A DNA stretch of 64,000 bases from Candidatus Spongiisociaceae bacterium. Its GTDB lineage: Bacteria > Actinomycetota > Acidimicrobiia > Spongiisociales > Spongiisociaceae. Within the stretch, counting starts at the first letter, position 1, and the number at the start of each line of letters is the position of its first letter. The notes under the pieces were generated by a model. It was not told the DNA's origin. It ran no database searches and worked only from the letters and a program-made list of their open reading frames with translations. The stretch covers positions 480,001-544,000 of the forward strand of contig OZ241841.1 of the NCBI GenBank assembly GCA_965202665.1. The letters are read 5' to 3'. This document shows, in pieces, positions 1-34,246 of the stretch. The translations under genes and the position numbers were made by a program.

Positions 1-3000
1 CAGTATTTGGTGGGATCGTTGGCGTCGCATCCGACGGTTATTCCCCATTCGGCCATCAACTCGATGTTTGGTTCGTGGACGCTGCCGTCGTCGTCGCAGA
101 ACCGACCCTGGCAGGCCACCGGCGCGGGGGGCGCCACCGGAGCGACGGGTGCGGCGGGACCGGCCGGGGGCGGGGCCCCTCCTCCGGCGGGGGGCGGGGC
201 TCCTCCGCCTCCGCCTCCTCCACCACCTCCACCGGCGGCGGGGGGCGGCGCGGCCGGAGGCGGCGCGCTTCCACCCCCACCTCCTCCTCCTCCACCTCCT
301 CCTCCACCACCTCCTCCTCCACCACCTCCGGTGGGTGCGCTTGGTGTGCTGGTTGGCGGCGGCGGTGGGGGTGTGTATGTGTTGGCGGGAATGGTGAGGG
401 CGGCGGGGGTGATGGTAAATCCGTCGGCGGCGCCGGTTATGTTGATTCGTTCGGTTGGTTCTCTGGGTATTTGGTCGGTTTTGATGTTGATGGTGAAGGT
501 TCCGGAGCCGGATGATGCCGCGGGGCGGATATTTATGGTGGTGAGCTGGCTGGTGATTTGGTAGTCGTCGTTGGGGGTGGCGGTGCTGTCGGGGCCGGGG
601 ATGGTTATAGCCACGGAAGTGGCTTCAAACCGGGTGGTGGAGCCGTCCAGCCGGGCGGTGACGGTAACCCGACGGTTGGTTTCTCCTTCAGATAGGCTGG
701 CGGAGGGGCCGACAGTGAGGGTGATGCCGGTGGGTGGATCGTCGTTGTCTTTGATAGTAAATGCCACGGGTTCGATAGCGATCCCAGCGGAGGTTCCGGT
801 TATTTGTATGGTTTCATCCGGTTCGTCGATGCTGTCATCGGTGATGGGCAGGCTGAGGGTTCGGGTGGCGCTGTTTTGATTAGCGGAGATGGTCAGCGGG
901 GTGAGGGCGGGGGCGGTGTAGTCGTCTCCGGCGACGGCGGTTCCACCGAAGGCCAAGGTTACGGTGTGGGCGTTGGGAAGCGTTTCCGTGCCCGGGTAGG
1001 CGGCTTGCAGGGTTACGGACGTGCCGGTGTCCCCTTCGGTCGCTTCAGTTGTTGGGGTGAGGGTTAGCGTGACGGTCAGGTCGTCGTCGATGATGGTGAG
1101 GGTGTCTTGCGCGATAGTGAAACCGGCGAGCGTCCCACCGGCAACGGTTAGCGTTTCCGGCCCCTCGAAGGCGTCGTCGTTATATGTTCCGTCGGTTTTG
1201 AGCAGGAAAGTTGCGGTTCCGCTGGTTTCGTAGCCGGAAATTCGCACGTTGAAGGCATCCACCGTTTCATAGTCGGTTCCCTCAGTTGCTTCCCCAGTAG
1301 CCGTTTTGCCGACCACGATGGGTACGAAGGTAGCGGCGGAGCGGGTGGCGGTACCCTGGAAAGTGGCTACCACCCGCACCCGAATCTCTTGGTTTTCGTG
1401 GGCTTGGGTGAGGTGTTCCCCGCTGCTGTCGGCTCGGGTGCTGTGCAGGGAGAGGGTGACAGCGGTAGGAGGAGCGTCGTTATCGTTCAAAGCCAAAGCG
1501 ACGGCTACCGTGTGATAATCCACGTTGTTGATGGTTACTTGACTGCCGTTGATGACTATCCGTCTCGCCGGTTCATCGACGTTGTCGTCGTTCACCGTGA
1601 CTTGGATGTCGACGTAGCCGGTTTTAGTACCGGCGGGGATGGTGATGCCGGTGTCGTATCCGGAGGGAGTTGAGGCTGGTCGGGAGGGCCAAACTATCCG
1701 GTAGTCTTCCCGGTTCGTCCAAACGTTGTTGGAGTCCGCGGTGGCGGTACTGTCCTCGTCTATCTCCAAACCCACTACCACACCCCCGGTAGGGGCGTTC
1801 ACCGGCAGGGTAGCGGTAACCCGCACAGTGGTTGTTCCGCTGTTTTCCCCCAATGCGGACAGGGCGTTGTTGTTGGAGGGGTTGGTTAGGGCGAGGGTGA
1901 TGCCGCTGTCCGCAATGTTGATAGTCGTAGAATCGGAGGCGGCCGTTCCGGCGACGGTGGCCGAACCGCTGATTTTCACCGTTTCCGCAGTAGTTTCCGC
2001 GTCAGTATCAACCCGGGCGGTCAGCTGAAACGACCCCGTATGATGATGCTGCCCAGCGGGAATGCGGATAGTGAACGAGTTGCCCGTCTGGTCAGTGCAC
2101 ACATCTTCAGTCATCGACTGAGAACACGCTGTCGCCACCGTAGCCCCGTTGGTGTCCCCGGCCGCTATTGTTACCGTCACGTCAGTGTTGGTCGCCAGCG
2201 CGGAGGAGGTCGCTCCGGCGAACCCGGCGGTTACCGTTACGTTGTGGGCGCTGGCGCTTTCCGTCACCCTCCCCGGCGAGGCGGTTACCTCCAAAGCGGT
2301 GTCGCTGGCCCCGATAGTCAACGTGTCCGGGGTAATCCCCACGCCGCTGTTCACCGACGTCCCGGCGATCCTGAACGTTTCCGCCAGCTCGGTTATCGCA
2401 TCGTCTGTTATCGCTAATCCGGTTAGGTTGGTCCAGGCGCTTTGCGTTTGCCCGGCGGGGATGGACACCGTAACCGGGGTAGCGGGAGGAGTGAAATCGA
2501 TTCCCCCCGCCTCCGCCGACGCCGGCGACAAAGCCTCCGCAGTCACCCGCACCTGCAAAGCAGATCCTATATCGTTGCTGGTGGCGGTGGTGAACGCGGC
2601 CCGTACCCGCACCGCAACCGTTGAGCCCTCCGACAAAGTTTTCTGATTCCCGCTTTCCACACCGTCAGTATCCGCCGTCAGGGTCACTTCTAGATCATCG
2701 TCTGTGATAACCAGCGTCGTTCCACTAACCGCAAACCCCCCGGCGGTACCGTCGATGTCAATACTCTCCGCGTCCTCCGCGATGGCGTCCCCCGTAATCA
2801 GCAAACCAGACAGAGCAACCGCCGAACTACTAGTAGAACCAGCCGGGATGGTCACCGTCACCGCCGTACCCGGGGCGGTGAAATCCGTCGCTTCCGCGTT
2901 CTCTCCCGCCCCGAACGATAAGGTTACGTCGGTGGCTTGAGTGAGCGAGGAGCTGGACGCCCCGGCGAATGAGGCGGTAACGGTTACGGCTCCGGCGTTG

Positions 3001-6746: not shown

Positions 6747-6774
6747 ACGCTACCCCCCCCCCCCAATTTGTCAA
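6747..6774 (-). promoter_or_regulatory. Sigma70/SigA-type promoter with G12 tract in the spacer (TTGACA-AATT-G12-TAGCGT, 16-nt spacer)
   Basis: Read directly: -35 at 6769-6774, C12 on + strand at 6753-6764, -10 at 6747-6752. Same element precedes all five paralogues. Confidence 0.85.
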
Positions 6775-6816
6775 ATCAAACCTCGATGAAGGCGTCTTCT
6801 ATGTTGCTTATGTTCC

Positions 6817-9800
6817 TCAGTTCCCGCCGGTGGCGGCGGGGGCGAGGTTGACGGCGCGGACGAAGAAAGAGGCCATCTGCGCTCTGGTTACCGGTTTGTT
6901 CGGGCAGTAGTTGAGGGGGGTGGTGGCGCAACCTCTGGTTACGCCTCTGCCGTACATTCCTTCAATAGCCCGGATGATGGCGGGGTCTAGTCCTGTTGCG
7001 TCTTGGAAGAGGTTTTGGGGTTCTTCCACGGATTGGAGGTGGGGAAAGGCGGCGATCATCATGATGGCCATATCGGCCCGGGTTACCACACCGCCGGGGT
7101 TGAAGTTTCCGTCGGTGAGCGCGAAGGCGTTTACGGAGACGCCCCATTCGGCGTAGGTGCGGTACCAAGCATCGGCTGGAACATCGCTGATTTCTATGTC
7201 CTCGGGGGGTTGGATGGTCCAGCGTTGGGAGACGGCGCGGTGGAGGAAGGCGGCCATTTGCCTGCGGGTGATTTGGGCTCCGGGGCAGTATTTGGTGGAG
7301 TCTTCGGTGTCGCAGCCGAGGGTGATTCTCCATCCGGCTATCCGTTCGATGTTGGCTTCATGGACGCTGCCGTCGTCATCGCAGAACCGGCCCTGGCAGA
7401 CCGGTTCGGGGGGAGGCGCAGGGGCCGGCGGGGGCGCGGCGGGCGGCGGGGTGCCGCCTCCTCCCCCTCCGCCTCCACCTCCCCCGCCGCCGCCTCCTCC
7501 TCCGCCGCCGCCTCCGCTACCCCCTCCGCCGCTGGGGCTGGGGGGCGGGGCGTCGTTGGCGGGGATGGCGAGGGTGAGGGTGGCGGGGCTGGGGGTTAAA
7601 CCGGCTGGGGCGGTGGCGGTGAGAACGATTCGTTCAGCTCGTTCTGGGGTGTTGTCGTTGATGATGGTTATGGTCAGGTTGGGGGCCTGGGTTTGCCCGG
7701 CGGGAATGACCGCGGTCAGGTTGCTTATCCGATAGTCGGAGTTACGGATGGCGTCTCCGCCGAGGCTGAAGGTAACGGCGGTGTCGGTGGAAAGCGGGTT
7801 CGATCCGGCGGGGAAGCGGGTAGCGATAGCGGCGGTGGCGCCGGTAGTTTCAGCCACGCTGGTTCGGGAGAGGCTGATTTGGACGCTGGTGGGCGGAGCG
7901 TCGTTGTCTTTGATGGTGAGCGTAGCCGGTTCGACGGTGAACCCGGCCAGCGTTCCGATTATCTGCAAGGTTTCGTCCCCTTCGGCGATGTTGTCGTCGG
8001 CCACGGCGGACAGGGTGATGGTTTGAGGGGTAGCGCTGTTTTGGTTAGCGGAGATGGTCATATCAGCAAGCGCGGAGGCGGTGAAGTCAGACGAAGAAGC
8101 GGTACCCCCGTAGGCCAGACTGACGGTCTGGGAAGCACCTAAAGTTTCCGTACCCGGATAGGCGGCCCGCAGGCTTAGAGTGATGTTGGCGTCCCCTTCG
8201 GTCACCTCGTCTGGCGTGACGGCAAGAATAACAGTCAGGTCATCGTCGAGGATGGACAGCGTGTCCTCCCCGATAGTGAAACCGGCGAGGGTCCCCCCGG
8301 CGACGGTCAACGTTTCCGGCCCCTCAAAAGCCGCATCATTGTATGTTCCATCAGTTCTAAGAACAAAACTGCTAACCCCGCTGGATTGGTAAGCGGGAAT
8401 GGCAACAGTAAAGTCGCCTACCGTTTCGTAATCCGTTCCCTCAGTGGCCTCCCCGGAAGGCTTTCCGACCACAATCGGCACGAAAGTAGCGGCGGAACGG
8501 GTGGCGGTTCCTTGAAAAGCGGCCCGTACCCGCACGGTGGTGCTTGTTCCGCCTTCGGGTACTTGGGTCAGCTCCGCTCCTACCTCGCCGCCGTCATCTT
8601 CATAAAGAGAGACATCGATGACGGTAGGAGGAGAATCGTTGTCGTTTAGGGTCAAACTGGCATCTACCGTCTGGTAGGTGTCGGCGCTGATAGTTACATC
8701 ACTGCCTTCGAAAAGAATGGTCTTCGCCGGTTCGGCAACGCTGTCGTCATTTACAACAATGGTGACATCAGCGAAACTGTTGGTGCTTCCTTGGGCGATG
8801 GTGATGCCGGTGGAGTATCCGCCGGGAGTTCCGGTCGGTTTGGAGGGCCAAGTCACACGGTAGTCCTCCCCATCCGCCCATACGTTGTTAGAGGCCGCAA
8901 CGGCGGTACTGCCCTCGGCTATTCTCAGGCCTACTACCACTCCACCCGAGGGGACGGTGACCCCGGTGGGCAGGGTAGCGGTCACCCGTATAGTGGAGGA
9001 TCCGCTGTTCTCATCCAACGCAGACACGGAACTCCCGGACTTAGCCAGAGTGAGGGTGATGGCGCTGTCTACTACGTTGATAGTGTCAGTATCTGACTCC
9101 GATTCTCCAGCGACGGTGGCGCTTCCGGTTATTTTCACCGTTTCAGTGGTGGCTTCCTGTGTTCCATCGTCCCGGGCGGTCAGCTTGAATGTTCCCGTAT
9201 GGCTGACTTCCCCGGCGGGGATGGTAATGGTAAACGAGTTGCCCGTCTGATCGGTGCAAACATCGTTCTGACCGATCGCGGAGCACGACGCCGCCATCGT
9301 CGCCCCGTTGGAATCCCCGGCCGCTACCGCCACCGTCACATCGGTGCCCGCCGCTAAAGCGGAGGAGGACGCTCCCGCGAACCCGGCGGTTACCGTAACA
9401 TCATGGGCGGCGCCGCTTTCATACACCGTTCCCGGCGACGCGGTGACTTCCAAAGCGGTGTCGCTAGCCCCGATAGTCAACGTGTCCGAAGTTACCGTCA
9501 CGCCGCTTCTCCCAACAACAGTACCGGTGATGGCAAACGTTTCCGCCGCCTCGGTCTCCGCGTCGTCTGCAACCGACAAGCCCGACAAGTTCACCCAAGG
9601 GCTTGCCAGACTGCTTTGCCCGGCGGGGATGGACACCGTGACCGGCGTAGCGGGAGCGGTGAAATCAACACCACCGCCCGCCGCTGACTGCGGCGACGAA
9701 ACCCCGGCGGTGACGCGCACCTGCAGAGCGGATCCTAAATCGTTGGAAGTAGCAGATGTGAACCTGGCCTGTACCCGCACCGCCGCCGTTGCCCCCTCCG

Positions 9801-12429: not shown

Positions 12430-12456
12430 ACGCTACCCCCCCCCCCAATATGTCAA
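12430..12456 (-). promoter_or_regulatory. Promoter with G11 tract (TTGACA-TATT-G11-TAGCGT, 15-nt spacer)
   Basis: -35 at 12451-12456, C11 at 12436-12446, -10 at 12430-12435. Confidence 0.85.
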
Positions 12457-19724: not shown

Positions 19725-19752
19725 ACGCTACCCCCCCCCCCCAATTTGTCAA
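19725..19752 (-). promoter_or_regulatory. Promoter with G12 tract (TTGACA-AATT-G12-TAGCGT, 16-nt spacer)
   Basis: -35 at 19747-19752, C12 at 19731-19742, -10 at 19725-19730. Confidence 0.85.
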
Positions 19753-19834: not shown

Positions 19835-22800
19835 TTATGATTCTCCGGTGGTAGTGGGGGCTTGGTTGATTACTCTTACGAAGAAGGATGCCATCTGCGC
19901 CCGGGTTACCGGATTGTTGGGGCAGTACCTGAGGGGGGGCGTGGTGGTGCATCCTCTGGTCACTTCGCTTTCGGCTATGCCTTCGATAGCACGCACCACC
20001 GCTGCGTCCAGGTTGGCGGTGTCGGCGAACAGGTTTTGGGATTCGGATACGGCTTGGATGTGGGGGAAAGCGGCGACCATCATGACGGCCATGTCGGCTC
20101 GGGTGACTATGCCGCGGGGGTTGAAGTTCCCGTCGTTTAGCTGGAAGGCTCCGATGCTGACTAGCCAGTTGGCGTAGGGGCGGTAGCTGGCGTCGGCGGG
20201 GACGTCGTTGATTGTTATTCCGGTGGGGATTTGGATGGGCCAGCGGGGGTTGACTGCGCGGTAGATGAAGGTGGCCATTTGCCGGCGGGTGATTTGGGCG
20301 CTGGGGCAGTATTTGGTGGGGTCGTTGGCGTCGCATCCGATGGTTATTCCCCATTCGGCCATTAGCGCGATGTTGGGTTCGTGGACGCTGCCGTCGTCAT
20401 CGCAGAACCGTCCCTGGCAGACCACCGGCGCAGGCGGCGGCGCAACCGGCGGGGCGGGCCCAGCAGGCGGCGGGGCCCCTCCTCCGGCGGGGGGCGGGGC
20501 TCCTCCGCCTCCAGCGGCGGGTGGCGGGGCGGCCGGCGGCGGCGCACCCCCTCCTCCTCCGCCCCCTCCACCACCTCCACCTCCTCCGCCACCACCACTA
20601 CCGGTGGGTGCGCTTGGTGTGCTGGTTGGGGGCGGCGGGGGCGGCGGCGGGGGTGCGCTGTTGCGGATGGTGAGGACGGCGGGGGTGATGGTGAAGTCGG
20701 CGGCGGTTCCGGTTATTTGGAGGGTTTCGTTTGGTTCGGGGCCGTCGGTGTTGGGGATGGTTATGTTGAAGGTTGCGCTACCGGTTTGTGTCGCGGGGCG
20801 GATGGTTATGGTAGTGGGTTGGTTGGTGATTTGGTAGTCGTCGTTGGGGGTGGCGGTGCTGTCGGGGCCGGGGATGGTTATAGCCACAGAGGTGGCTTCA
20901 GAGCGGGTGGTGGTACCATCCAGCCGTGCGGTGATGGTGATCTGACGGTTGGTTTGTCCTTCGGGTAGGCTGGCGGGGTTGACGGTGAGGGTGATACCGG
21001 TGGGTGGATCGTCGTTGTCTTTGATAGTAAACGCGGCGGGTTCGATGGTGATTCCGGCGGAGGTTCCGGTTATCTGTACGGTTTCATCCGGTTCATCGAT
21101 GCTGTCGTCGGTGATAGGCAGGCTGAGGGTTCGGGTGGCACTGTTTTGATTAGCGAGGATGGTTAGGGGGGTGAGGGCGGGGGCGGTGTAGTCGGCGGCG
21201 ACGGCGGTTCCACCGAAGGCCAGGTTTATGGTGTGGGGGTTGGGGAGAGTTTCCCCGGTCGGGTAAGCGGCTTGTAGGGTTACGGACGTGTTGGTGTCTC
21301 CTTCGGTCCCTTGGTTTGGGGTGAGGGTTAGGGTAACGGTCAGGTCGTCGTCGATGAGGGTGAGGGTATCTTGCGCGATAGTGAAACCGGCGAGCGTTCC
21401 ACCGGCGACGGTCAGCGTTTCCGGCCCCTCAAAGTTGTTGTCGTTATATGTTCCGTCGGTTTTGAGCAGGAAAGTGTCGGTGCCGCTGTTTTGATAGCCG
21501 GGGATTTCCACATTGAAGGCATCCACCGTTTCATAGTCAGTTCCCTCAGTTGCTTCCCCAGCAGCCGTTTTACCGACCACGATCGGGACGAAGGTAGCGG
21601 CGGAACGGGTGGCTGTTCCCTGGAAGGTGGCTACCACCCGCACCCGGGTTTCTTCGTTTTCATGGGCTTCGGTGAGGTGTTCCCCACTACTGTCGGCACG
21701 GGTGCTGTGCAGGGAGAGAATGATAGCAGTGGGAGGGCCGTCGTTGTCGTTGATGGTGAGGGCGGCGGCTACCGTGTGATAATCCACATTGTTGATTGTT
21801 ACATGACTGCCGTCGATGATTATCCTTCTCGCCGGTTCATCGACGTTGTCATCGTTCACCGTAATATCTATATCCACATAACCGGTTTTGGTACCGGCGG
21901 CGATGGTGATACCGGCGGCGTAGCCGGAAGGGGTTCCGCTCGGTTTAGAGGGCCAGGCCACCCGGTAGTCCTCCCGGTTGGTCCAAACCCGGTTGGAGTC
22001 CGCGGTGGCGGTGCTGTCCTCGTCGATCTCCAAACCCACTACCACACCCCCGGTAGGGGCGTTCACCGGCAGGGTAGCGGTAACCCGCACAGTGGTTGTT
22101 CCGCTGTTTTCCGCCAACGCGGACACCGCGCTGCTATTGGAGGGGTTGGTCAGGGCCAGCCGGATGCCGCTGTCCGCGATGTTAATGGTGGCGGCATCGG
22201 AGGTGGATGTTCCGGCTACGGTGGCCGAACCGCTGATTTTCACCGTTTCCGCAGTAGTTTCCGCATCAGTATCAACCCGGGCGGTCAGCTGAAACGACCC
22301 CGCATGATGATGCTGCCCAGCCGGAATGCGGATAGTGAACGAGTTGCCCGTCTGGTCGGTGCACACATCTTCAGTCATCAACGGAGAACATGCCGTCGCC
22401 ACCGTAGCCCCGTTGGAGTCCCCGGCCGCTACCGTCACCGTCACGTCAGTGTTGGTTGCCAGCGCGGAGGAGGTCGCTCCCGCGAACCCGGCGGTCACCG
22501 TTACGTTGTGGGCGTCGGTGCTTTCCGTTACTCTCCCCGGCGAGGCGGTTACTTCCAAAGCGGTGTCGCTGGCCCCGATAGTCAACGTATCCGGGGTAAT
22601 CCCCACGCCGCTGTTCCCCGACGTCCCCGCGATCCTGAACGTTTCCGCCAACTCCGTCACCGCATCATCGGTAACCAACAGGCCCGTCAAGTTCGTCCAA
22701 GCGCTCTGCGTTTGCCCGGCGGGGATGGACACCGTAACCGGGGTAGCGGGAGGCGTGAAATCGATTCCCCCCGCCTCAGCCGACGCCGGCGACAAAGCCT

Positions 22801-25800
22801 CCGCAGTCACCCGCACCTGCAAAGCAGACCCTAAATCGTTGCTGGTAGCAGTAGCGAACGCCGCCCTTACCCGCACCGCGACCGTCTCGCCCTCCGACAA
22901 GGTTTTCTGATTCCCGCTTTCCACGCCGTCAGTATCCGCTGTCAGGGTTACGTCTAGATCGTCGTCGGTGATGACCAGCGTCGTTCCGCTGACCGCGAAC
23001 CCCCCGGCGGTGCCGTCGATGTTGATGGTTTCCGCGTCCTCGGCGATGGTGTCCCCTGTTATCAGCAAACCAGACAAAGCGACCGCGGAGCTGGTGGTGG
23101 CGGAGGCGGGGATGGTCACCGTTACCGCAGTGCCTGGTGCGGTGAAATCCGCCGCTTCCGCGTTTTCGCCCGCCCCGAACGACAAAGTTACGTCGGTGGC
23201 TTGGGTGAGAGAGGAACTGGACACCCCCGCGAATGAGGCGGTAACGGTCACCGCTCCGGCGTTGGCGTCTCTTTCATCCACCGTGGACTGACTGAGAGCC
23301 AAAACGATCGTTTCCAGAATGGGCAGGTCAGCGACTGCGACCGCCGGTAGATACCCGGTGGCGGAAGCGGTGAAACGGATGGTTTCCGCTCCCTCCATTG
23401 TCCCGTCATCCCGGGGAGTGAGCACGACATCCGCCGTCCCGCTGGTATCACCGCTGTTGATGGTAATAGGCGCCGTAGCGGCCCCGCGGGTGTAATCCCC
23501 GGTTGCCCCCAGAGTGGCGGTCCCGCCCGCGGCTCCTACGTTTACCGTGACTGTAGTGTTGGACGCGGCGGCTTTGCCGAGGGTGGCTTTCACCCGCACC
23601 GTCTGCGCGCCTCCGTTCTCGGTAATCCCCGACAGAGCAGGGGCGTCGCTGGACGGCTCGTGGAACGACAAAGTAAGTGCCCGGGTTGGGTCGTATACTT
23701 CCAGCTGGGCGGGGGTTACCGAGCCTATGGTGGTGGTACCGGTGAGTTTCAGGTTTTCTATGTCCTCGTTGTTGTCCATGTCATTGCGGGCTTGCAGTTG
23801 GAAGGAACCCGAGGCGTTGAGGTCCCCGGCGGGGATGCTGACCGTGAACTGATTGTTCGTCTGATTAGTACACACATCCGCCGCTGTCGGCGTTATGGAA
23901 CATACCGCTGAATCTACCGTCGCGCCGTTGGTGTCCCCCGCCCCGACCGTGACTGTCACCGGGGTGGCCGCTGACAGTACCGAGGTGGCTCCTTGGAAGC
24001 GGGCGGTTACCGTTATCTGATGAGCCGCCGCTTGTTCCACCACCCCGGTAGGCGACGCCGACAGCGTCACGTCAACATCGTCGTCGACGATGGTCACCTT
24101 CTCTGAAGCCACCGTCGCTCCGCCTGTTGCGGTGCCGGTGATGAGGAACGTTTCCGCTCCTTCCGCTATCGTGTCATCCGCTACCGACAACCCGGTTAGG
24201 TTCACCCAGCCGCTTTGCAGGGCGGTTCCGGTGGGTATCGTCACCGTCGCCGCCGCGCCGGGGGCGGTGAAATCGACACCCCCGCCGGTAGCTGACACCG
24301 GCGAACCCTCCCCGGCGGTTACTTGAATCTGGTAAGCAGCGGACAGGTCGTTGGTAGTAGCGGTGGTGAACGCGGCCCGTACCCGCACCGCCGCCGTTTC
24401 CCCCTCCGGCAAAGTTTGCTGCTCCCCGGTGGCGCTGTCGGTGTCCGCGGTTAACGTAACTCCCAGGTCGTCGTCGGTTATGGTCAGCTCCGTTCCGCTC
24501 ACCCCGAACCCGTCCGCCGTTCCCCCAACATCGATTTTCTCCTCCCCTTCCGCGATCGTATCCCCCGTAATCAACAAACCGGTCAAAGCGGCGGCGGAAC
24601 TGGAGGTGGAACCAGCCGGGATGCTCAACGTGAGCGCGGCGCCCGGGGCGGTGAAATCCAGCGTCTCCGCCTCCTCACCCGCACCGAACGACAACGTAAC
24701 AGCCGTCGCCCCGGTTAGCGTCGAAGAAGACGCCCCCGCAAACGCCGCGGTTACCGTCGCCGCCCCCGCGTTTGTTGCGCTCTCGCCTATTGATGACTGA
24801 CTGAGCGTCAACTCAATCGTTTCCGTGATCTTCAAATCAGCGGGAAAAATAGTGAACCCGGCAGCGGAACCGGTGAACCTAATCGTCTCCGCTCCCTCCA
24901 CCACCGTGTCCGACAAACCGGTGATCGTCGCATCCGCCGTACCAGACGACTCACCCGACGCAATCGTCACATCCACCGTTCCCGATCCCGGGTCGAAGTC
25001 GCCGCTCGTGCACGACCGCCCCGGACCGCTCCCCGTGCACGTCCCCAACGTCGCCGTACCCCCCGCAGACCCCACATTCACGCTGATCGTCGTGTCCGAG
25101 GTCACCGCCGCCCCCGCAGTGGCCTTCACCCGCACCGTCTGCGCCCCCCCATCCTCCGCGATCCCCGCCAAAACAGCCTCCCCCGCCGCCGCCTCATGAA
25201 AAGACAAATTAACCTTCGTCCCCGCATCGATAATCGGCAAATCCGCCGACTCCACTACTACCGCCGACCCGCCCACCGACGCCGAACCCGACACCCTAAG
25301 CTTCTCCCCCGACTCACCCGCACCATCATCAGGAACCGTCACCGAAAACGTAGCGCTCGCCGACGTACCACCCGCCGGAATAGAAATCGTCGTCGCATTG
25401 CCCGTCAAACTGGTACAAGCATCATTCCCGCCGGCCACCGGACACGCCGACGACAAAGAAGCCCCACCCGCCCCCGCCACCGACACCGCCACAGCAGTCG
25501 CAGTTGTCAGGATCGACGACGACCCTTTGAACCGGGCCGTCACCGTAACCTGACGCGCCGCCGCCTGCTCCTCCACCGACGACAAAGACCACCCCAACTC
25601 AATATCAGCATCATCATCATAAATCGTCAACTCCGACTCCGCAATCGTGTACTCAGAACCCAAACTAGACGTCCCCCCGCCAAACGTCAACGTCTCCGGC
25701 CCCTCCACCACCGCATCATCAACCACCGACAAACCCGCCAACGACCCATTACCGCTCTTCACCGCGCCAGCGGGAATAGAAAACGTGCTCGCAGACGACG

Positions 25801-26983
25801 AAACATAATTGACATCCGCGTCCCCCGCCTCCCCCGCCGCCGGCGAAGCCTTCTCATCCACCGACAAAACAGCCGTCGTCGCCGACGCATGAGTCGACGA
25901 CCCAACCCCATCCGGCCACCCCGCCCACGCCACCACCCCCGAACCCGACGCCCCCTCCGCCAACACAGACTGATTCCCCTCAGTTTCACTATCGGTGTCC
26001 ACCCTGAACACCACCTGCGAATCCACCAAATCCCTAATAATCACCGGGCCTCTCTCCACCGTAAACCCCGCGACAGAGCCATAAACCCCTAACCGTATGT
26101 GCACCCGGTCCGCATCTGCGGTATTATTCGCATGCAAACCGTAATAATAATTACTGGTGGTAGAGGTTAACCTACCACCCGAAAAGTTTAAAAACCTCTT
26201 TTCTGATGGGTGCCATTTATTTCTTGAATTTATGCCTGAAGAGATAGTGCCAAGCTGTATAAAGTGATTCCACACCTGTACTGAGTTTGCCGGATCGAGT
26301 GATTTGTTCTGAGTTTGTATTGTTCCTGTGTATGTAGAAGATGTAGAAGAAGTGAACCGGCCACCCGACAAACCTCCCAAAGTACCAGTAGCATTAACAT
26401 AAATTCTATTTTGATACGTAGCCGCCTCGTATACCACAATCGGGCTGATTTTGATAGTCCGATCCTGATCCGTAATAGTCAAATCAGTCGGAGAGACCGT
26501 ATACCCAGCAACGGTGGTAGTACCGGTCAACCGGATTGTCTCATGATCCTCTGTAATCCTATCCGACCGCAGAAAGAGTGTAGCGTCAAAAGGATAAGTA
26601 TAGCTAGTAGCACCCGCCCTAATAGTTATACTAGGAGGCGCGCCCCTAATACAGTAATCACCAGCAGAGCAAACCCACCTCGAAGGACGACCCTGTCTTC
26701 GCTCCTCGTAAGATGTCGCATCACGCGCTACTCCTTGAGTGGCGGTACCACTTATCAAAGAATTGACATTCACCCGCAAATCGGAGGACGGCGCCGAGGG
26801 CACCGACGCCTTCAACCGCAAAGCCTTCGTACCGCTGTCCTCCCCCACCGAGGTCACCGGGTTGCCCGCAGGATCAACCCAACTGAGCGTAATCGCCGTC
26901 TGCGCCCCCACCACCGCAGGCGCGGCCGGCAACACCGACAGGACCAAACCCGCCGCCAACGCCAACAGCCCCAGCCGCCGCAT
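19835..26983 (-). CDS. Giant secreted Calx-beta-like repeat/SLH protein, paralogue 4 (2382 aa)
   Basis: ORF track; signal peptide MRRLGLLALAAGLVLS...VGA-Q; Calx-beta-like repeats; SLH-like C-terminus. Confidence 0.9.
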   Translation of the reverse strand: MRRLGLLALAAGLVLSVLPAAPAVVGAQTAITLSWVDPAGNPVTSVGEDSGTKALRLKASVPSAPSSDLRVNVNSLISGTATQGVARDATSYEERRQGRPSRWVCSAGDYCIRGAPPSITIRAGATSYTYPFDATLFLRSDRITEDHETIRLTGTTTVAGYTVSPTDLTITDQDRTIKISPIVVYEAATYQNRIYVNATGTLGGLSGGRFTSSTSSTYTGTIQTQNKSLDPANSVQVWNHFIQLGTISSGINSRNKWHPSEKRFLNFSGGRLTSTTSNYYYGLHANNTADADRVHIRLGVYGSVAGFTVERGPVIIRDLVDSQVVFRVDTDSETEGNQSVLAEGASGSGVVAWAGWPDGVGSSTHASATTAVLSVDEKASPAAGEAGDADVNYVSSSASTFSIPAGAVKSGNGSLAGLSVVDDAVVEGPETLTFGGGTSSLGSEYTIAESELTIYDDDADIELGWSLSSVEEQAAARQVTVTARFKGSSSILTTATAVAVSVAGAGGASLSSACPVAGGNDACTSLTGNATTISIPAGGTSASATFSVTVPDDGAGESGEKLRVSGSASVGGSAVVVESADLPIIDAGTKVNLSFHEAAAGEAVLAGIAEDGGAQTVRVKATAGAAVTSDTTISVNVGSAGGTATLGTCTGSGPGRSCTSGDFDPGSGTVDVTIASGESSGTADATITGLSDTVVEGAETIRFTGSAAGFTIFPADLKITETIELTLSQSSIGESATNAGAATVTAAFAGASSSTLTGATAVTLSFGAGEEAETLDFTAPGAALTLSIPAGSTSSSAAALTGLLITGDTIAEGEEKIDVGGTADGFGVSGTELTITDDDLGVTLTADTDSATGEQQTLPEGETAAVRVRAAFTTATTNDLSAAYQIQVTAGEGSPVSATGGGVDFTAPGAAATVTIPTGTALQSGWVNLTGLSVADDTIAEGAETFLITGTATGGATVASEKVTIVDDDVDVTLSASPTGVVEQAAAHQITVTARFQGATSVLSAATPVTVTVGAGDTNGATVDSAVCSITPTAADVCTNQTNNQFTVSIPAGDLNASGSFQLQARNDMDNNEDIENLKLTGTTTIGSVTPAQLEVYDPTRALTLSFHEPSSDAPALSGITENGGAQTVRVKATLGKAAASNTTVTVNVGAAGGTATLGATGDYTRGAATAPITINSGDTSGTADVVLTPRDDGTMEGAETIRFTASATGYLPAVAVADLPILETIVLALSQSTVDERDANAGAVTVTASFAGVSSSSLTQATDVTLSFGAGENAEAADFTAPGTAVTVTIPASATTSSAVALSGLLITGDTIAEDAETINIDGTAGGFAVSGTTLVITDDDLDVTLTADTDGVESGNQKTLSEGETVAVRVRAAFATATSNDLGSALQVRVTAEALSPASAEAGGIDFTPPATPVTVSIPAGQTQSAWTNLTGLLVTDDAVTELAETFRIAGTSGNSGVGITPDTLTIGASDTALEVTASPGRVTESTDAHNVTVTAGFAGATSSALATNTDVTVTVAAGDSNGATVATACSPLMTEDVCTDQTGNSFTIRIPAGQHHHAGSFQLTARVDTDAETTAETVKISGSATVAGTSTSDAATINIADSGIRLALTNPSNSSAVSALAENSGTTTVRVTATLPVNAPTGGVVVGLEIDEDSTATADSNRVWTNREDYRVAWPSKPSGTPSGYAAGITIAAGTKTGYVDIDITVNDDNVDEPARRIIIDGSHVTINNVDYHTVAAALTINDNDGPPTAIILSLHSTRADSSGEHLTEAHENEETRVRVVATFQGTATRSAATFVPIVVGKTAAGEATEGTDYETVDAFNVEIPGYQNSGTDTFLLKTDGTYNDNNFEGPETLTVAGGTLAGFTIAQDTLTLIDDDLTVTLTLTPNQGTEGDTNTSVTLQAAYPTGETLPNPHTINLAFGGTAVAADYTAPALTPLTILANQNSATRTLSLPITDDSIDEPDETVQITGTSAGITIEPAAFTIKDNDDPPTGITLTVNPASLPEGQTNRQITITARLDGTTTRSEATSVAITIPGPDSTATPNDDYQITNQPTTITIRPATQTGSATFNITIPNTDGPEPNETLQITGTAADFTITPAVLTIRNSAPPPPPPPPPTSTPSAPTGSGGGGGGGGGGGGGGGGGAPPPAAPPPAAGGGGAPPPAGGGAPPPAGPAPPVAPPPAPVVCQGRFCDDDGSVHEPNIALMAEWGITIGCDANDPTKYCPSAQITRRQMATFIYRAVNPRWPIQIPTGITINDVPADASYRPYANWLVSIGAFQLNDGNFNPRGIVTRADMAVMMVAAFPHIQAVSESQNLFADTANLDAAVVRAIEGIAESEVTRGCTTTPPLRYCPNNPVTRAQMASFFVRVINQAPTTTGES

Positions 26984-27040: not shown

Positions 27041-27067
27041 ACGCTACCCCCCCCCCCAATTTGTCAA
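27041..27067 (-). promoter_or_regulatory. Promoter with G11 tract (TTGACA-AATT-G11-TAGCGT, 15-nt spacer)
   Basis: -35 at 27062-27067, C11 at 27047-27057, -10 at 27041-27046. Confidence 0.85.
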
Positions 27068-27106: not shown

Positions 27107-30100
27107 TCAACCCGATTCTTCGGTGGTGGTGGGGGCTTGGTTGATTACTCTTACGAAGAAGGACGCCATCTGGGCGCGGGTTACCGGATTGTTGGGGCAG
27201 TATCTGAGAGGCGGCGTGGTGGTGCATCCTCTGGTCACTTCGCTTTCGGCTATGCCTTCTATGGCCCTTACCACGGCCGCGTCCAGGTTGGCGGTGTCGG
27301 CGAACAGGTTTTGGGATTCGGATACGGCTTGGATGTGGGGGAAAGCAGCTACCATCATGACCGCCATGTCGGCTCGGGTTACTATGCCCCTGGGGTTGAA
27401 GTTCCCGTCGTCTAGTTGGAAGGCCCCGATGGATACTAGCCAGTTGGCGTAGGGGCGGTAGCTGGCGTCGGCGGGGACGTCGTTGATTGTTACGCCGGTG
27501 GGGATTTGGATGGGCCAGCGGGGGTTGACGGCGCGGTAGATGAAGGTGGCCATTTGCCTGCGGGTGATTTGGGCGCTGGGGCAGTATTTGGTGGGGTCGT
27601 TGGCGTCGCATCCGATGGTTATTCCCCATTCGGCCATTAGCGCGATGTTGGGTTCGTGGACGCTGCCGTCGTCGTCGCAGAACCGACCCTGACAGGCCAC
27701 CGGCGCGGGAGGCGGCGGTGCGGGCGCGGCGGGCCCAGCCGGGGGTGGGGCCCCTCCTCCTGCGGCGGGAGGCGGGGCTCCGCCTCCTCCTCCTCCGGCG
27801 GCGGGGGGCGGCGCGGCCGGCGGCGGCGCGCCTCCACCGCCTCCTCCGCCGCCGGTGGGTGGGTTGGGGGTGGTGGTTGGTGGCGGCGGGGGCGGGGGCG
27901 GGGGTGCGCTGTTGCGGATGGTGAGAACGGCGGGGGTGATGGTGAACCCGGCGAGGGTTCCGTTTATTTGGAGGGTTTCGTTTGGTTCGGGGCCGTCGGT
28001 GTTGGGGATGGTTATGTTGAAAGTTGCGGTTCCGGTTTGCGTTGCGGGGCGGATGGTTATGGTGGTGGGCTGGTTGGTGATTTGGTAGTCGGCGGGGGTG
28101 GTGGTGCTGTCGGGGCCGGGGATGGTTATAGCCACGGAGGTGGTTTCAGATCGGGTGGTGGAGCCGTCCAGCCGGGCGGTGATGGTGATCTGACGGTTGT
28201 TTGCTCCTTCGTCTAAGCCGGATGGGCTGGTGGTGAGGGTGATGCCGGTGGGTGGGTCGTCGTTGTCTTTGATAGTGAAGGTGGCGGGGGTGATAGTGAT
28301 TCCGGCGGAGGTTCCAGTTATCTGTACGGTTTCATCCGGTTCATCGATGCTGTCATCGGTGATAGGCAAGCTGAGGGTTCGGGTAACGCTGTTTTGATTA
28401 GCGAGGATGGTTAGGGGGGTGAGGGCGGGGGCGGTGTAGTCGGCTCCGGCGGTGGCGGTTCCTCCGAGGGCCAGGGTTATGGTGTGGGGGTTGGGGAGGG
28501 TCTCCCCGGTCGGGTAGGCGGCTTGTAGGGTTACGGACGTGTTGGTGTCTCCTTCGGTCCCTTGGTTCGGGGTGAGGGTGAGTGTAACGGTCAGGTCGTC
28601 GTCGATGAGGGTGAGGGTATCTTGCGCGATCGTGAATCCGGCGAGCGTTCCACCGGCGACGGTTAGCGTTTCCGGGCCCTCAAAGTTGTTGTCGTTGTAT
28701 GTTCCGTCGGTTTTGAGCAGGAAAGTATCGGTGCCGCTGTTTTGGTAGCCGGGGATTTCCACATTGAAGTCGGCTACCGTTTGGTAGTCGGTTCCTTCGG
28801 TGGCTTCCCCGGTTTTGCCAACCACGATGGGGACGAAGGTGGCGGCGGAGCGGGTGGCTGTTCCCTGGAAGGTAGCTACCACCCGCACCCGGGTTTCTTC
28901 GTTTTCATGGGCTTCGGTGAGGTGTTCCCCACTACTGTCGGCCCGGGTGCTGTGCAAGGTGAGAGTGACAGCAGTGGGAGGGCCGTCGTTGTCGTTGATG
29001 GTGAGAGCGGCGGCTACCGTGTGATAATCCACATTGTTGATTGTTACATGACTGCCGTCGATGATTATCCTTCTTGTCGGTTCGTCGACGTTGTCATCGT
29101 TTACCGTAATATCTATATCCACGTAGCCGGTTTTGGTACCGGCGGCGATGGTGATACCGGTGTTGTAGCCGGAGGGGGTTCCGCTCGGTTTAGAGGGCCA
29201 GGCCACTCGGTAGTCTTCCCGGTTGGTCCAAACCCGGTTGGAGTCCGCGGTGGCGGTGCTGTCCTCGTCGATCTCCAAACCCACCACCACACCGCCGGTA
29301 GGGGCGTTCACCGGCAGGGTAGCGGTAACCCGCACAGTGGTTGTTCCGCTGTTTTCCGCCAACGCGGACACCGCGCTGTTGCTGGAGGGGTTGGTCAGGA
29401 CAAGCCGGATGCCGCTGTCCGCGATGTTGATAGTCGTAGAATCGGAGGCGGCTGTTCCGGCGACGGTGGCCGAACCGCTGATTTTCACCGTTTCCGCAGT
29501 AGTTTCCGCATCAGTATCAACCCGGGCGGTCAGCTGAAACGACCCCGTATGATGATGCTGACCAGCCGGAATGCGGATAGTGAACGAGTTGCCCGTCTGG
29601 TCGGTGCACACATCTTCAGTCATCGACGGAGAGCATGCCGTCGCCACCGTCGCTCCGTTGGAATCCCCGGCCGCTACCGTAACCGTCACGTCGGTGTTGG
29701 TTGCCAGCGCGGAGGAGGTCGCTCCGGCGAACCCGGCGGTGACCGTTATGTTGTGGGCGTCGGTGCTTTCCGTCACCCTCCCCGGCGACGCGGTTACCTC
29801 CAAAGCGGTGTCGCTGGCCCCGATAGTCAACGTATCCGGGGTAATCCCCACGCCGCTGTTCACCGACGTCCCCGCGATTCTGAACGTTTCCGCCAACTCC
29901 GTCACCGCATCATCCGTAACCAACAGGCCCGTCAAGTTCGTCCAGGCGCTTTGGGTTTGCCCGGCGGGGATGGACACCGTGACCGGGGTGGCGGGAGGGG
30001 TGAAATCTATTCCCCCCGCCTCAGCCGACGCCGGCGACAAAGCCTCCGCGGTCACGCGTACTTGCAGAGCGGATCCTATATCGTTGCTGGTAGCAGTCGT

Positions 30101-33100
30101 GAACGCGGCTCGTACCCGCACCGCAACCGTCTCTCCCTCCGACAAAGTTTTCTGATTCCCGCTTTCCACGCCGTCAGTATCCGCCGTCAGGGTCACTTCT
30201 AGATCATCGTCTGTGATAACCAGCGTCGTTCCGCTAACCGCAAACCCCCCAGCGGTACCGTCGATGTCAATACTCTCCGCGTCCTCCGCGATGGTGTCCC
30301 CCGTAATCAGCAAACCGCTCAACGCAACGGCGGAGCTGGTGGTGGCGGAGGCTGGGATGGTCACCGTGATCGCGGTGCCCGGGGCGGTGAAATCCGCCGC
30401 CTCCGCGTTCTCACCCGCCCCGAACGACAAGGTTACGTCGGTGGCCTGGGCGAGCGAGGAACTGGACGCCCCCGCAAAAGAGGCGGTAACAGTCACGGCT
30501 CCGGCGTTGGCGTCTCTTTCATCCACCGTGGACTGACTGAGGGCCAAAGTGATCGTCTCCAGGATCGACAAATCAGCGACCGCGGGCAGATACCCGCCGG
30601 TAGCGGAAGCGGTGAAACGAATAGTTTCCGCCCCCTCAATCGTCCCATCATCGCGGGGAGTGAGTACGACATCCGCCGTCCCACTGGTTTGGCCGCTAGC
30701 GATGGTGATAGTCGCCGTGCTACTCCCGCGGGTGTAATCCCCAGTCGCTCCCAAAGCGGCGGTTCCGCCCGCAGCCCCTACATTTACAGTCACCGTGGCT
30801 GACGACGAAGCGGCTGCGCCGAGGGTGGCTTTCACCCGCACCGTCTGCGCCCCCCCATCCTCGGTAATCCCCGACAAGGCCGGAGCGGCGCTGGTCGGCT
30901 CATGGAAAGACAAAGTAACCGCCCGACCCGGATCGAAAACACCCATCTGAGCGGACGCCACCTGACCTATAGAAGTAGAACCAGTCAGTTTCAAATACTC
31001 GATACCCTCAGTGTCATCCCCATCGGCGCGGGCCCGCAGCTGAAAAGAACCCGAACCGCTGACATCCCCGGCGGGGATGCTGACCGTGAACTGATTGTTC
31101 GTCTGGTTAGTGCACACATCCGCTGTCATCGTCATCGTAGAACATACCGCGGTATGCACCGTCGCGCCGCTGGTGTCCGCCGACCCAACCGTTACCGTCA
31201 CCGGAGTAGCCGCCGACAACACCGAAGTAGCCCCCTGAAAACGGGCCGTTACCACTATCTGATGATCCGCCGTCCGTTCCACCACCTCCGCCGGCGACGC
31301 CGACAAAGACACATCCACATCATCATCAACGATAGTTATCGTCTCCGCAACCACCGTCCCGCCTGTCGCGGTACCGGTGATGAGAAAAGTCTCCGCTCCC
31401 TCCGCTACCGTGTCATCCGCCACCGACAGGCCGGTGAGATTCACCCAGCCGCTTTGCAGGGCGGTTCCGACGGGCATAGTCACCGTCGCAGTCGTGCCGG
31501 GGGCGGTGAAATCAACACCCCCGCTGGTCGCCGACACCGGAGAACCCTCCTCCGCGGTCACCTGAACCGTATACGCGGCGGTCAAGTCGTTGGTAGTAGC
31601 TGATGTGAACCGGGCCCGTACCCGTACCGCCGCCGCCTCACCCTCCGGCAGGGTTTGCTGCTCCCCGTTCGTGCCGCTATCGGTGTCCGCCGTTAACGTA
31701 ACCCCCAGATCATCGTCGTTTATGGTCAGCTCCGTTCCGCTCACCACAAACCCATCCGCCGTCCCCTCAACATCGATTTTCTCCTCCCCCTCCGCGATCG
31801 AATCAGACGTAATCAGCAAACCGGTCAGAGCGGTAGCGGAACTGGAGGTGGAAGAAGCCGGAATACTCACCGTGATCGCGGTGCCGGGAGCGGTGAAATC
31901 CAACGTCTCCGCGTTCTCGCCCGCCCCGAACGACAACGTAACAACCGTCGCCCCCGTCAACATCGAAGTAGCAGCCCCCGCGAACGCGGCCGTCACCGTG
32001 GCCGCCCCCGCGTTCGTCGCGCTCTCGCCTATTGACGGCTGGCTGAGGGTCAACGTAATCTCTTCGGTGATTTTCAAATCCGCGGGGAACACGGCAAACC
32101 CGGCGGCGGAACCGGTGAACTGAACCGTTTCCTCCCCCTCCGCCACCGTATCCGACAAAGGAGTAATAGTCACATCCGCCGTCCCGGAAGTCTCACCCGA
32201 CGCAATCGTCACATCCACCGTCGCCGCCCCCCGATCGTAGTCGCCGCTTGCGCAAGACCGGGACTGTCCGCTACCCGTGCATGTCCCCAAAGTCGCCGTA
32301 CCCCCCGCCGCCCCCACATTCACGCTAATCGTCGTATCCGAGGTCACCGCCGCTCCCGCCGTAGCCTTCACCCGCACCGTCTCCGCCCCCCCACCCTCCG
32401 CTATCCCCGCCAGCGCCGCCTCGCCCGCCGTCGCTTCATGCAACGACAGATCCACCCGCGTCCCCACATCCACAATCGGCAAATCCACCGACTCCACCGT
32501 CACCGCCGTCCCGCCCACCGACGCCGAACCCGACAGCGTCAGCTTCTCCCCCGACTCGCTCGTACTATCATCAGGAACCGTCACCATAAACGTGCCGGTC
32601 CCCGACGTCGCACCCGCCGGAATAGACACCGTCATCTGATTATTAGTCAAACTAGTACAAGCATCGTTCGTATTCGCCGGACACCCCAAAGAAGCCCCAC
32701 CCGACCCCGCCACCGACACCGTCACATTTGTAGCAGTCGTCAGAATCGACGACGAACCCTTAAACCGGGCGGTCACCGTAACCTGCTGCGACCCCGCCTG
32801 CTCATCCACCGACGACGGAGACACCTCCAACTCAATATCAGCATCGTTGTCATATATCGTCAACGTGTCCGCCGTAGCGGTTCCCAAAGCCGACGACCCA
32901 CCCACCTCAAAAGTTTCCGGTCCCTCCACAATCGTATCATCGGTGATCGTCAAACCAGCCAACGTAGCCGAACCCGAAGCAGTGATACTCCGAGCCGGGA
33001 AAGAAATCGTATTCGCCATCGACGGAGCATACGAAAAATCAGCCGCAGTCGCCTTCCCCGCCCCCGCCGGAGTCTCCGCCGCCGCCGACAACGTCACCGT

Positions 33101-34246
33101 CGTCACCGAAGAAATTTGCGACGACGTCGCGTTCGGAAAACTAGCCGACACCGACACCCCCGAACCGGAATCCCCCTCCGTCAACACATCCTGATCCCCT
33201 ATAGCCTCACTATCGGTATCCACCGTCAAACCCACCTGACTATTAGCATCCTTAATCGTAACCGGAGCCCTTAACACCGTCCAACCTGACGGGACGGATT
33301 GCAACCCAACATAAAAAACCTCATCCGACTCCGCCGCCTCATCCCTCATAACTAGTGAAAAGAAAAAAACAAGAGGGCTATCTACGCCGTGAAAACTCCC
33401 AGAAACCTGACCGGCGGTTATCCTCGCACCAATAGGATCATCATTGTTACTATTATGGGATGAAACGACATCCGCAGGAAAATCATCATTTGAATTGACC
33501 GACTGCAGATGGGTAGCGGTTCCCGCCTCTGTCACTATTCGCATAAGCCTCGTATCTCCCCTCTGTTGGTACGCTAAATCTTGGCCGTACGTTGAAGAAG
33601 TAGAAGCAGTGAACACACCACCCTTCACCCCACCCACCACAACCGATGGCCCAGGTCTATGTAGAAAACCATGAGCACGGTTATCACCGGCTGGCGTAAC
33701 CTGATCCTCCCGCAACACATCCCGCGATAAGTTCACCTTAATCACCCGGTCCTGATCGGTAATCCTCAAAGTAGCCGGAGTTACCGTATACCCAGAAGCG
33801 GAACCGGAAAAAATGATGGTCTCATGCTCCTCCGTAATCCTATCCGACCGCAGTTCAATCGTAAAATTAGTAGACGTAACACTTGTTTGATTCCTATGAA
33901 TAGTTAAATTCCAAGGCTCATTAGCACAGTAATCACCAGAATTGCAAACAAGCCTCGGAGGACGGTGCCGATCATACGCATTCAAATTTACACGCACTCC
34001 TTCAGTGGCAGTACCGGATAACGCCCTGATGCTAATCCGCAAATTGGAGGACGGCGCCGAAGCCACCGACGCCCTCAACCGCACAACCTTCGAACCGCTA
34101 TCCTCCCCCAGCGTGGTCACCGCGTTACCCGAAGGATCAACCACACTGAACGTAATCGCCGTCGCCGCCCCCACCACCGCAGGCACGGCCGGCAACACCG
34201 ACAGGACCAAACCCGTCGCCAACGCCAACAGCCCCAGCCGTCGCAT
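27107..34246 (-). CDS. Giant secreted Calx-beta-like repeat/SLH protein, paralogue 5 (about 2379 aa)
   Basis: ORF 27107..34249 (GTG-ATG); ATG 34246 with GGAGG upstream. Same architecture. Confidence 0.9.
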   Translation of the reverse strand: MRRLGLLALATGLVLSVLPAVPAVVGAATAITFSVVDPSGNAVTTLGEDSGSKVVRLRASVASAPSSNLRISIRALSGTATEGVRVNLNAYDRHRPPRLVCNSGDYCANEPWNLTIHRNQTSVTSTNFTIELRSDRITEEHETIIFSGSASGYTVTPATLRITDQDRVIKVNLSRDVLREDQVTPAGDNRAHGFLHRPGPSVVVGGVKGGVFTASTSSTYGQDLAYQQRGDTRLMRIVTEAGTATHLQSVNSNDDFPADVVSSHNSNNDDPIGARITAGQVSGSFHGVDSPLVFFFSLVMRDEAAESDEVFYVGLQSVPSGWTVLRAPVTIKDANSQVGLTVDTDSEAIGDQDVLTEGDSGSGVSVSASFPNATSSQISSVTTVTLSAAAETPAGAGKATAADFSYAPSMANTISFPARSITASGSATLAGLTITDDTIVEGPETFEVGGSSALGTATADTLTIYDNDADIELEVSPSSVDEQAGSQQVTVTARFKGSSSILTTATNVTVSVAGSGGASLGCPANTNDACTSLTNNQMTVSIPAGATSGTGTFMVTVPDDSTSESGEKLTLSGSASVGGTAVTVESVDLPIVDVGTRVDLSLHEATAGEAALAGIAEGGGAETVRVKATAGAAVTSDTTISVNVGAAGGTATLGTCTGSGQSRSCASGDYDRGAATVDVTIASGETSGTADVTITPLSDTVAEGEETVQFTGSAAGFAVFPADLKITEEITLTLSQPSIGESATNAGAATVTAAFAGAATSMLTGATVVTLSFGAGENAETLDFTAPGTAITVSIPASSTSSSATALTGLLITSDSIAEGEEKIDVEGTADGFVVSGTELTINDDDLGVTLTADTDSGTNGEQQTLPEGEAAAVRVRARFTSATTNDLTAAYTVQVTAEEGSPVSATSGGVDFTAPGTTATVTMPVGTALQSGWVNLTGLSVADDTVAEGAETFLITGTATGGTVVAETITIVDDDVDVSLSASPAEVVERTADHQIVVTARFQGATSVLSAATPVTVTVGSADTSGATVHTAVCSTMTMTADVCTNQTNNQFTVSIPAGDVSGSGSFQLRARADGDDTEGIEYLKLTGSTSIGQVASAQMGVFDPGRAVTLSFHEPTSAAPALSGITEDGGAQTVRVKATLGAAASSSATVTVNVGAAGGTAALGATGDYTRGSSTATITIASGQTSGTADVVLTPRDDGTIEGAETIRFTASATGGYLPAVADLSILETITLALSQSTVDERDANAGAVTVTASFAGASSSSLAQATDVTLSFGAGENAEAADFTAPGTAITVTIPASATTSSAVALSGLLITGDTIAEDAESIDIDGTAGGFAVSGTTLVITDDDLEVTLTADTDGVESGNQKTLSEGETVAVRVRAAFTTATSNDIGSALQVRVTAEALSPASAEAGGIDFTPPATPVTVSIPAGQTQSAWTNLTGLLVTDDAVTELAETFRIAGTSVNSGVGITPDTLTIGASDTALEVTASPGRVTESTDAHNITVTAGFAGATSSALATNTDVTVTVAAGDSNGATVATACSPSMTEDVCTDQTGNSFTIRIPAGQHHHTGSFQLTARVDTDAETTAETVKISGSATVAGTAASDSTTINIADSGIRLVLTNPSSNSAVSALAENSGTTTVRVTATLPVNAPTGGVVVGLEIDEDSTATADSNRVWTNREDYRVAWPSKPSGTPSGYNTGITIAAGTKTGYVDIDITVNDDNVDEPTRRIIIDGSHVTINNVDYHTVAAALTINDNDGPPTAVTLTLHSTRADSSGEHLTEAHENEETRVRVVATFQGTATRSAATFVPIVVGKTGEATEGTDYQTVADFNVEIPGYQNSGTDTFLLKTDGTYNDNNFEGPETLTVAGGTLAGFTIAQDTLTLIDDDLTVTLTLTPNQGTEGDTNTSVTLQAAYPTGETLPNPHTITLALGGTATAGADYTAPALTPLTILANQNSVTRTLSLPITDDSIDEPDETVQITGTSAGITITPATFTIKDNDDPPTGITLTTSPSGLDEGANNRQITITARLDGSTTRSETTSVAITIPGPDSTTTPADYQITNQPTTITIRPATQTGTATFNITIPNTDGPEPNETLQINGTLAGFTITPAVLTIRNSAPPPPPPPPPTTTPNPPTGGGGGGGGAPPPAAPPPAAGGGGGGAPPPAAGGGAPPPAGPAAPAPPPPAPVACQGRFCDDDGSVHEPNIALMAEWGITIGCDANDPTKYCPSAQITRRQMATFIYRAVNPRWPIQIPTGVTINDVPADASYRPYANWLVSIGAFQLDDGNFNPRGIVTRADMAVMMVAAFPHIQAVSESQNLFADTANLDAAVVRAIEGIAESEVTRGCTTTPPLRYCPNNPVTRAQMASFFVRVINQAPTTTEESG

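Follow-up and report, generated by a model that had tools for sequence, protein, structure and literature searches.

The giant surface proteins of an acidimicrobiian, probably sponge-associated and a symbiont, appear to form a phase-variable repertoire in which slipped-strand changes in a poly-G run would give each gene its own promoter-like switch. On sequence grounds we regard this reading as probable, and the run of each cassette as likely to turn the gene behind it on and off. The original prediction for the window (the whole 64,000-nucleotide stretch of DNA that was analysed) had described a variable surface; its interchangeable tips stand, but it named no mechanism for the choice among copies, and here the findings favour a poly-G promoter switch for each gene, combined with occasional domain-level recombination. 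The host association that it proposed is supported by the labels of the 18 sequencing runs holding the W1 stretch, with five rows (two studies) marked as sponge metagenome and four as marine metagenome, the others being coded; no RNA dataset is listed among these runs.

The genome (G000) consists of a single contig (C1) of 2.77 Mb and is 94% complete. Positions 1-34246 of the window are filled by five long open reading frames, named W1 to W5 from right to left, all head-to-tail on the minus strand, which bears out the tandem arrangement of five paralogues claimed for this DNA; lengths are counted from the start at the MRRL signal peptide, and the signal peptides, described as near-identical, share 94-98% nucleotide identity with the nearest copy throughout W1-W5. 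W1 (27107..34246, minus strand, 2379 aa) begins with a signal peptide (residues 1-27) and the variable tip modules D1 (28-166) and D2 (167-334); 14 more Calx-beta-like modules come next and then, after a Pro/Gly linker, the SLH region. W2 (19835..26983, minus, 2382 aa) has the most divergent D2 tip module of the paralogues and is followed by W3 (12598..19668, minus, 2356 aa) and by W4 (6817..12378, minus, 1853 aa), a short form with 12 modules in which four of the 16 seen in W1 are missing. W5 (1..6695, minus, 2391 aa) carries a mosaic tip and terminates 481 bases to the left of the window. The array had been said to continue past position 1; only this tail lies beyond it, and since the reading frames listed in the next 12 kb are unrelated to the family, the array has five members. 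Extending the count to the whole contig raised the number of close paralogues to 11; of the six outside the array, three form an array of their own near 1.02 Mb, two stand singly and one is split over the contig ends. This last paralogue, X0, the sole G13 copy, overruns position 1 and has its C-terminal part at the other contig end, which makes a circular contig probable. Larger relatives, of 4,500-12,700 aa, occur elsewhere in the genome; giants of 10,398, 8,080 and 12,727 aa lie at C1:1141275-1172471, C1:1652242-1676484 and C1:2390217-2428400, and the runs immediately upstream of these three are of the opposite polarity (C12-C13). The GC content of the array is 0.54-0.64, with its minimum at the tips, compared with 0.65-0.71 in the remaining window.

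Members of the W1-W5 family contain 12-16 Calx-beta-like modules, which are 112-142 aa long and show the motifs DxxxExxE and IxDxD. The 16 modules of W1 share an invariant Asp and have three Glu conserved to at least 90%, with acidic motifs at both module ends, and these residues are the ones which we take to correspond to the Calx-beta Ca2+ site. Calx-beta repeats bind Ca2+ and stiffen extended adhesins, and we infer Ca2+ binding, a rod shape and an adhesin function for W1-W5. The proposed Calx-beta-like stalk is supported by the acidic motifs, by fold predictions and by Pfam matches in relatives. In the Pfam scan (PF03160, cut-off 27) W3 (29.2 bits) and W4 (28.1 bits) passed narrowly, W1 and W2 gave no match, and 8 of the 13 relatives picked from the top of the tip-profile search exceeded the cut-off, while the module profile reached NCX/CALX among PDB sequences at weak E values of 0.13-0.35. 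AF2 models covering D1-D3 of W1 were all-beta and CBD-like (pLDDT 81.5 for D1-D3, 86.7 for D2 alone). The D1 model best matched CALX-CBD1 (Z 9.6, rmsd 3.0, 104 residues aligned) and that of D3 matched NCX1 CBD1 (Z 8.5). As regards D2, for which the fold call combines Foldseek with the multi-domain rows of the structure comparison, CALX/NCX chains occupied Foldseek ranks 2-6 (E 1e-3 to 3e-3), with the chaperone DraB ranking ahead; the whole tip yielded low-TM multi-Ig matches only. Since D1, D3 and, weakly, D2 match CBD folds, the tip seems to be made of the same fold as the stalk, and the models suggest that the tips are Calx-beta-fold modules with hypervariable loops, without a separate ligand domain.

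At the other end of these proteins the Pro/Gly linker precedes the SLH region throughout the family. The SLH anchor was confirmed by Pfam (PF00395) in all four proteins scanned (W1-W4), with 29-32 bits against a cut-off of 20.8 over one stretch each, and three TRxxMA motifs are visible at the C-terminus. In addition, a CsaB-like polysaccharide pyruvyl transferase is encoded at 59405..60388 on the plus strand (PF04230 above cut-off at 59354-60184), the single PF04230 match in the genome, 25 kb from the array and amid glycosyltransferases. Enzymes of the CsaB type make the pyruvylated wall polymer to which SLH domains bind; this one likely does so in the present cell, and the nearby gene is consistent with SLH anchoring of the W1-W5 family. 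Window positions 46636-63803 form a cell-wall polysaccharide cluster, comprising a sugar transferase, several GT2 genes, the pyruvyl transferase, a UDP-GlcNAc 2-epimerase and an ABC transporter, and a SpoIID-SLH protein is encoded inside it at 51268-53466.

Each of the 11 close paralogues is preceded by the cassette TTGACA-(A/T)ATT-G11-13-TAGCGT, in which the poly-G run, some 60-75 bases from the gene start, fills the spacer between -35-like and -10-like hexamers. On the minus strand of the array the cassettes are located at 34304..34331 for W1 (TTGACA-AATT-G12-TAGCGT, tract 34310-34321, spacer 16 nt), 27041..27067 for W2 (G11, 15 nt), 19725..19752 for W3 (G12, 16 nt), 12430..12456 for W4 (TTGACA-TATT-G11-TAGCGT, 15 nt) and 6747..6774 for W5 (G12, 16 nt); over the 11 paralogues the spacer measures 15 nt in six, 16 nt in four and 17 nt in one. 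In the whole genome the cassette occurs 24 times. Surface-protein genes follow it in 23 cases (11 in the close family, three related 4,500-aa genes and nine in a second surface family) and a methylase-HNH gene in one; the reversed pattern, used as a control, gave 0 matches. G/C runs are bimodal in length, 96 being of 8, one of 9, none of 10 and 75 of at least 11 bases. A long run lies near the start of 20 of the 41 SLH-like genes, compared with 47 of 1439 open reading frames of at least 400 aa, a background which contains spurious frames as well as the SLH-like genes themselves. Furthermore, the Gly linkers of 8-24 codons in the same 11 genes never hold a run longer than G8.

As to the hexamers, TAGCGT agrees with the -10 consensus at just three of six positions, and relatives carry TATAAT, TAGAAT or TAGTAT in its place. 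A promoter scan returned nothing above shuffles, three cassettes in the scanned region being absent from its list. Outside the poly-G context, TTGACA..TAnnnT pairs occur 22 times each at spacers of 17 and 18 nt, compared with twice at 15 and six times at 16. No consistent terminator was found between the array genes on their strand, where the terminator scan also gave nothing above shuffles, so that read-through may couple neighbouring genes. The second surface family, of about 1,200-1,400 aa, shows an N-terminal SLH region, weak Big_1 and FG-GAP; five of its nine cassette-bearing genes were scanned, with SLH in 4/4 and FG-GAP in 3/4 of the first four and both in the fifth. Its sites are C1:1460524-1466381, 1579484-1591466, 1947347-1954976, 2094032 and 2270985. 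C1:640404 and C1:2473121 also carry a G33 run and a compound T13-G12 run, and the sequence downstream is similar.

The comparison was extended to other genomes, and the protein family together with its poly-G cassettes was found again in G001, G004, G009 and G013, the four of 30 relatives with many protein matches; two more gave weak ones. Among the gene starts fetched, which represent part of the protein hits, the cassette preceded 20/20 in G001, 12/12 in G009, 11/11 in G004 (a twelfth region missed its start) and 1/1 in G013. A looser pattern, searched in 201 genomes of the order, gave, besides those in G000, 41 matches in G001, 20 in G004, 12 in G009 and one in G199, counts that are partly double-counted and from which the G013 variant was missed, and 0 matches in 196 of the 201. 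One G001 cassette reaches G19 and others G14-G15, a wide range of tract lengths. Moreover, all 12 genes fetched from G009 have a second poly-G run inside the signal peptide, out of frame in four (G10/G12) and in frame in eight, and six G004 genes also possess a second run there. The cassette scan of GTDB genomes returned 45 loci, of which 32 lie in a single Candidatus Spongiisociaceae bacterium, and that of metagenomes eight single-match loci. With the run labels, this suggests that G000 belongs to that family of Acidimicrobiia and is associated with sponges.

According to the proposed mechanism, the poly-G run of each cassette would slip during replication and thereby change the distance between the -35 and -10 hexamers. 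Tracts of G13-G14 would set the spacer at 17-18 nt, the length favoured by the promoter-like sites of this genome, and turn the gene ON, G12 (spacer 16) would leave it weak and G11 (spacer 15) off. With these lengths most copies would be silent in the consensus genome and sub-populations would display different tips. Assembled homopolymer lengths may be one base off, which weakens both this ON/OFF tally and the G009 frameshifts. In the sponge the tips would probably bind a ligand of the host's matrix or cells. Switching would be a hedge, with attachment on one side and being recognised by phage or host cells on the other, and recombination between copies would slowly renew the tip set. What selects for it may be adhesion, evasion of phage or phagocytes, or a combination of the two. 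With regard to repair, MutS gave no match in the genome and NucS is present. NucS does not correct indels, and the proofreading of actinobacterial polymerase suppresses most short indels (PMC8228993, excerpts).

Tract length could also be followed in natural samples, the W1 promoter being compared in 8 of the 18 runs. Contigs of X1 and X3 continue straight through G12, in X4 the contig is interrupted at the run's edge, X8 aligns with 11 G and four letters left over, and X17 is too shallow at this promoter for a tract reading; the upstream contig of X5, X6 and X13 stops at the 11th G. Both flanking contigs of X6 (24.8x and 25.4x) stop at that letter, and among the matches listed for this run are 41-nt contigs with G11 (8.59x) and G12 (7.32x), without substitutions, both of which carry the W1-specific downstream letters. 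X5 has a G11 contig at 160.5x compared with 292.8x in the flank, the G10 and G13 forms amounting to less than 1% of the pooled depth. These short-read contigs, as distinct from raw reads, suggest that G11 and G12 alleles coexist at the W1 locus in one sample, and variation of W1 tract length within and between samples is indicated. Since the 41-nt contigs fall short of the bridging rule (31 letters on each side), and length variants can also arise on G12 by stutter during PCR or sequencing, this variation is rated as indicative.

Divergence among the copies had been described as strong only in the first ~300 residues. It is indeed strongest there, mean pairwise identity being 0.43-0.59 for residues 1-300 compared with 0.65-0.87 for residues 301-2000 (100-residue windows), but the last stalk module is variable too (0.54) and W4 differs by its missing modules. 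Differences in the tips are clustered in a few segments, the loops, on a conserved frame. For the tip, pooled dN/dS is 0.63-0.86, never above 1; the mid-stalk has 0.18-0.33 and the final stalk module 0.88, so that the tip values indicate relaxed or diversifying evolution, short of proven positive selection. The interchangeability of the tips is supported by mosaic combinations of D1 and D2: most of D1 in W5 is nearer to W1/B2 (73-93% nucleotide identity) than to W3 (48-72%), while its D2 is 88-100% identical to that of W3, with the switch point at the conserved D1/D2 junction. The nearest relative changes along most genes of the family, and a site-compatibility test over 1192 sites gave 0.326, where the lowest value among 200 shuffles was 0.452, neighbouring sites being more compatible than after shuffling. 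Occasional domain-level recombination among copies would thus make new D1/D2 combinations. The D2 tip of W1 shows 0-1 base differences over four runs from four studies (one perhaps the source sample), from which a stable repertoire, without rapid mutation, is deduced. Antigenic variation through rapid tip mutation is thereby not supported, and a diversity-generating retroelement was rejected, no reverse transcriptase (PF00078) being matched in the 94%-complete genome. An invertible-promoter or silent-cassette system was likewise rejected, since every copy possesses a start and a cassette of its own and all point the same way; the two PF00589 matches in the genome both lie more than 250 kb from the array.

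The same switch may serve another driver, if the switched proteins are chiefly a coat that, by varying, evades phage or host phagocytes, a reading that we treat as possible yet distinctly the less expected one. It draws on the concentration of variation in the tip loops, on the enrichment of sponge-associated UBA5794 in defence systems (PMC12008989, excerpts) and on the long G runs within three tandem Type ISP genes and the cassette before the methylase-HNH gene, which together would place defence under the same kind of switch. The near-invariance of the W1 D2 tip over four studies is unlike a fast arms race, and the tips are richer in Tyr/Trp/Phe/His/Arg than the stalk (14.9% against 6.1%), an enrichment that resembles the tendency of binding surfaces and would argue against a mere coat. 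The Type ISP restriction-modification genes, at C1:1215758-1232851, contain within and between them about a dozen G11-13 runs and make up a candidate phase-variable defence locus; the other cassette, at C1:846179-846205, lies about 310 nt before the DNA methylase-HNH gene, with a 95-aa reading frame in between.

A fixed, co-expressed repertoire, in which poly-G would be a non-switching passenger copied along with the promoter, could account for the duplicated unit being gene plus promoter and for tract lengths bunching at 11-12. We consider it unlikely, since the run is kept ahead of the genes of two distinct protein families, and across two genera, though the flanking hexamers differ, runs of 9-10 are almost missing, and the second run of G009 occupies a frame-critical site. 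Furthermore, G002, a member of the bacterial family that is assembled in a single contig and gave no match to W1-W5-type proteins, has three G11 matches (overlapping count) compared with 66-272 in the four relatives with the protein family. Still less probable is a G run acting, as a G-quadruplex, to trigger recombination for tip exchange, in the manner of Neisseria pilE, where a G-quadruplex drives recombination: the tips are mosaic and the run is close to each gene start, but it is placed exactly between the -35-like and -10-like hexamers, and with a start and cassette of its own in every copy the family has no silent donors. Lastly, similar kilobase-scale repeats and homopolymers make for difficult assembly, and one paralogue is divided between contig ends, but that the copies or G runs are artefacts is scarcely credible, since sequencing depth over the unique tip of W1 is on a par with the single-copy flank (133.6/132.5, 20.8/21, 448.9/477.4 and 13.5/11.8 in four short-read runs from four studies) and shared parts are about 10-30 times deeper in the same runs, so that the copies are real, while contigs contain the G12 run, no two of the 11 copies are identical over a stretch longer than 449 bases and the same design recurs in four other genomes.

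Slipped-strand switching of the poly-G cassettes, the reading preferred here, also has a wider bearing. Large phase-variable surface repertoires are textbook knowledge for pathogens facing antibodies; sponges are not known to possess any. If true, a switchboard of 24-41 cassettes would represent a pathogen-style strategy within an ancient symbiosis, in uncultured sponge-associated bacteria. Tract lengths in metagenomes could then be read, free of culture, as an ON/OFF code and set against host species, tissue, phage load and RNA. Expressing the compact tip modules could in turn show the binding target of the symbiont. No report of poly-G phase variation in sponge symbionts was found in a literature search that covered few subscription papers. 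Calx-beta enrichment in sponge Actinobacteriota has been described, in a main text which mentions neither SLH nor phase or homopolymers (PMC11706023).

The Calx-beta fold suggests a comparison with the host itself. Sponge aggregation factors are encoded by a polymorphic five-gene cluster and have 2-14 Calx-beta domains (PMC5400394, excerpts); with these, as with the Calx-beta domains of NCX1/CALX CBD1 and integrin beta4, the W1-W5 family shares the predicted fold and the acidic motifs. It differs in being bacterial and SLH-anchored, with long variable loops on the tip modules, and Wreath or von Willebrand Pfam models gave no match in its proteins. The resemblance, Calx-beta-rich and polymorphic on both sides, is a lead only. 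That the poly-G Calx-beta rods mimic or dock onto the aggregation factor, with sub-populations matching the self-recognition type of each host, is an improbable if attractive extension of it.

Closer precedents concern the switch. In Neisseria meningitidis porA a poly-G run of about 11 lies between -35 and -10, and one base fewer halves surface expression, two fewer lowering it 13-fold (PMC3639595; PMC7864442, both in excerpt). The homopolymer is thus in the same place in porA as in 11/11 paralogues here; porA, however, is one outer-membrane porin gene of a pathogen under antibody selection, whereas in the present, likely symbiont a single cassette recurs 24 times ahead of giant SLH proteins and switching is predicted. 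The Mycoplasma hyorhinis Vlp system is also a multigene surface family with a promoter homopolymer for each gene and size change by gain or loss of repeats (PMC10502178), features which the W1-W5 family shares, but its runs are poly-A and its products small lipoproteins, compared with poly-G, wall-anchored proteins of 1,850-2,400 aa and tip recombination in the present case. The tpr genes of Treponema pallidum are paralogous surface genes with variable promoter poly-G (PMC7864442, excerpts); in tprL the run overlaps the -10 region and leaves spacing unchanged, and the proteins are unrelated to the W1-W5 family. By analogy, then, with class membership suggested by promoter layout, the system would work like porA and Vlp phase variation, a known switching principle applied on an unusual scale to a little-described giant protein family of a probable symbiont.
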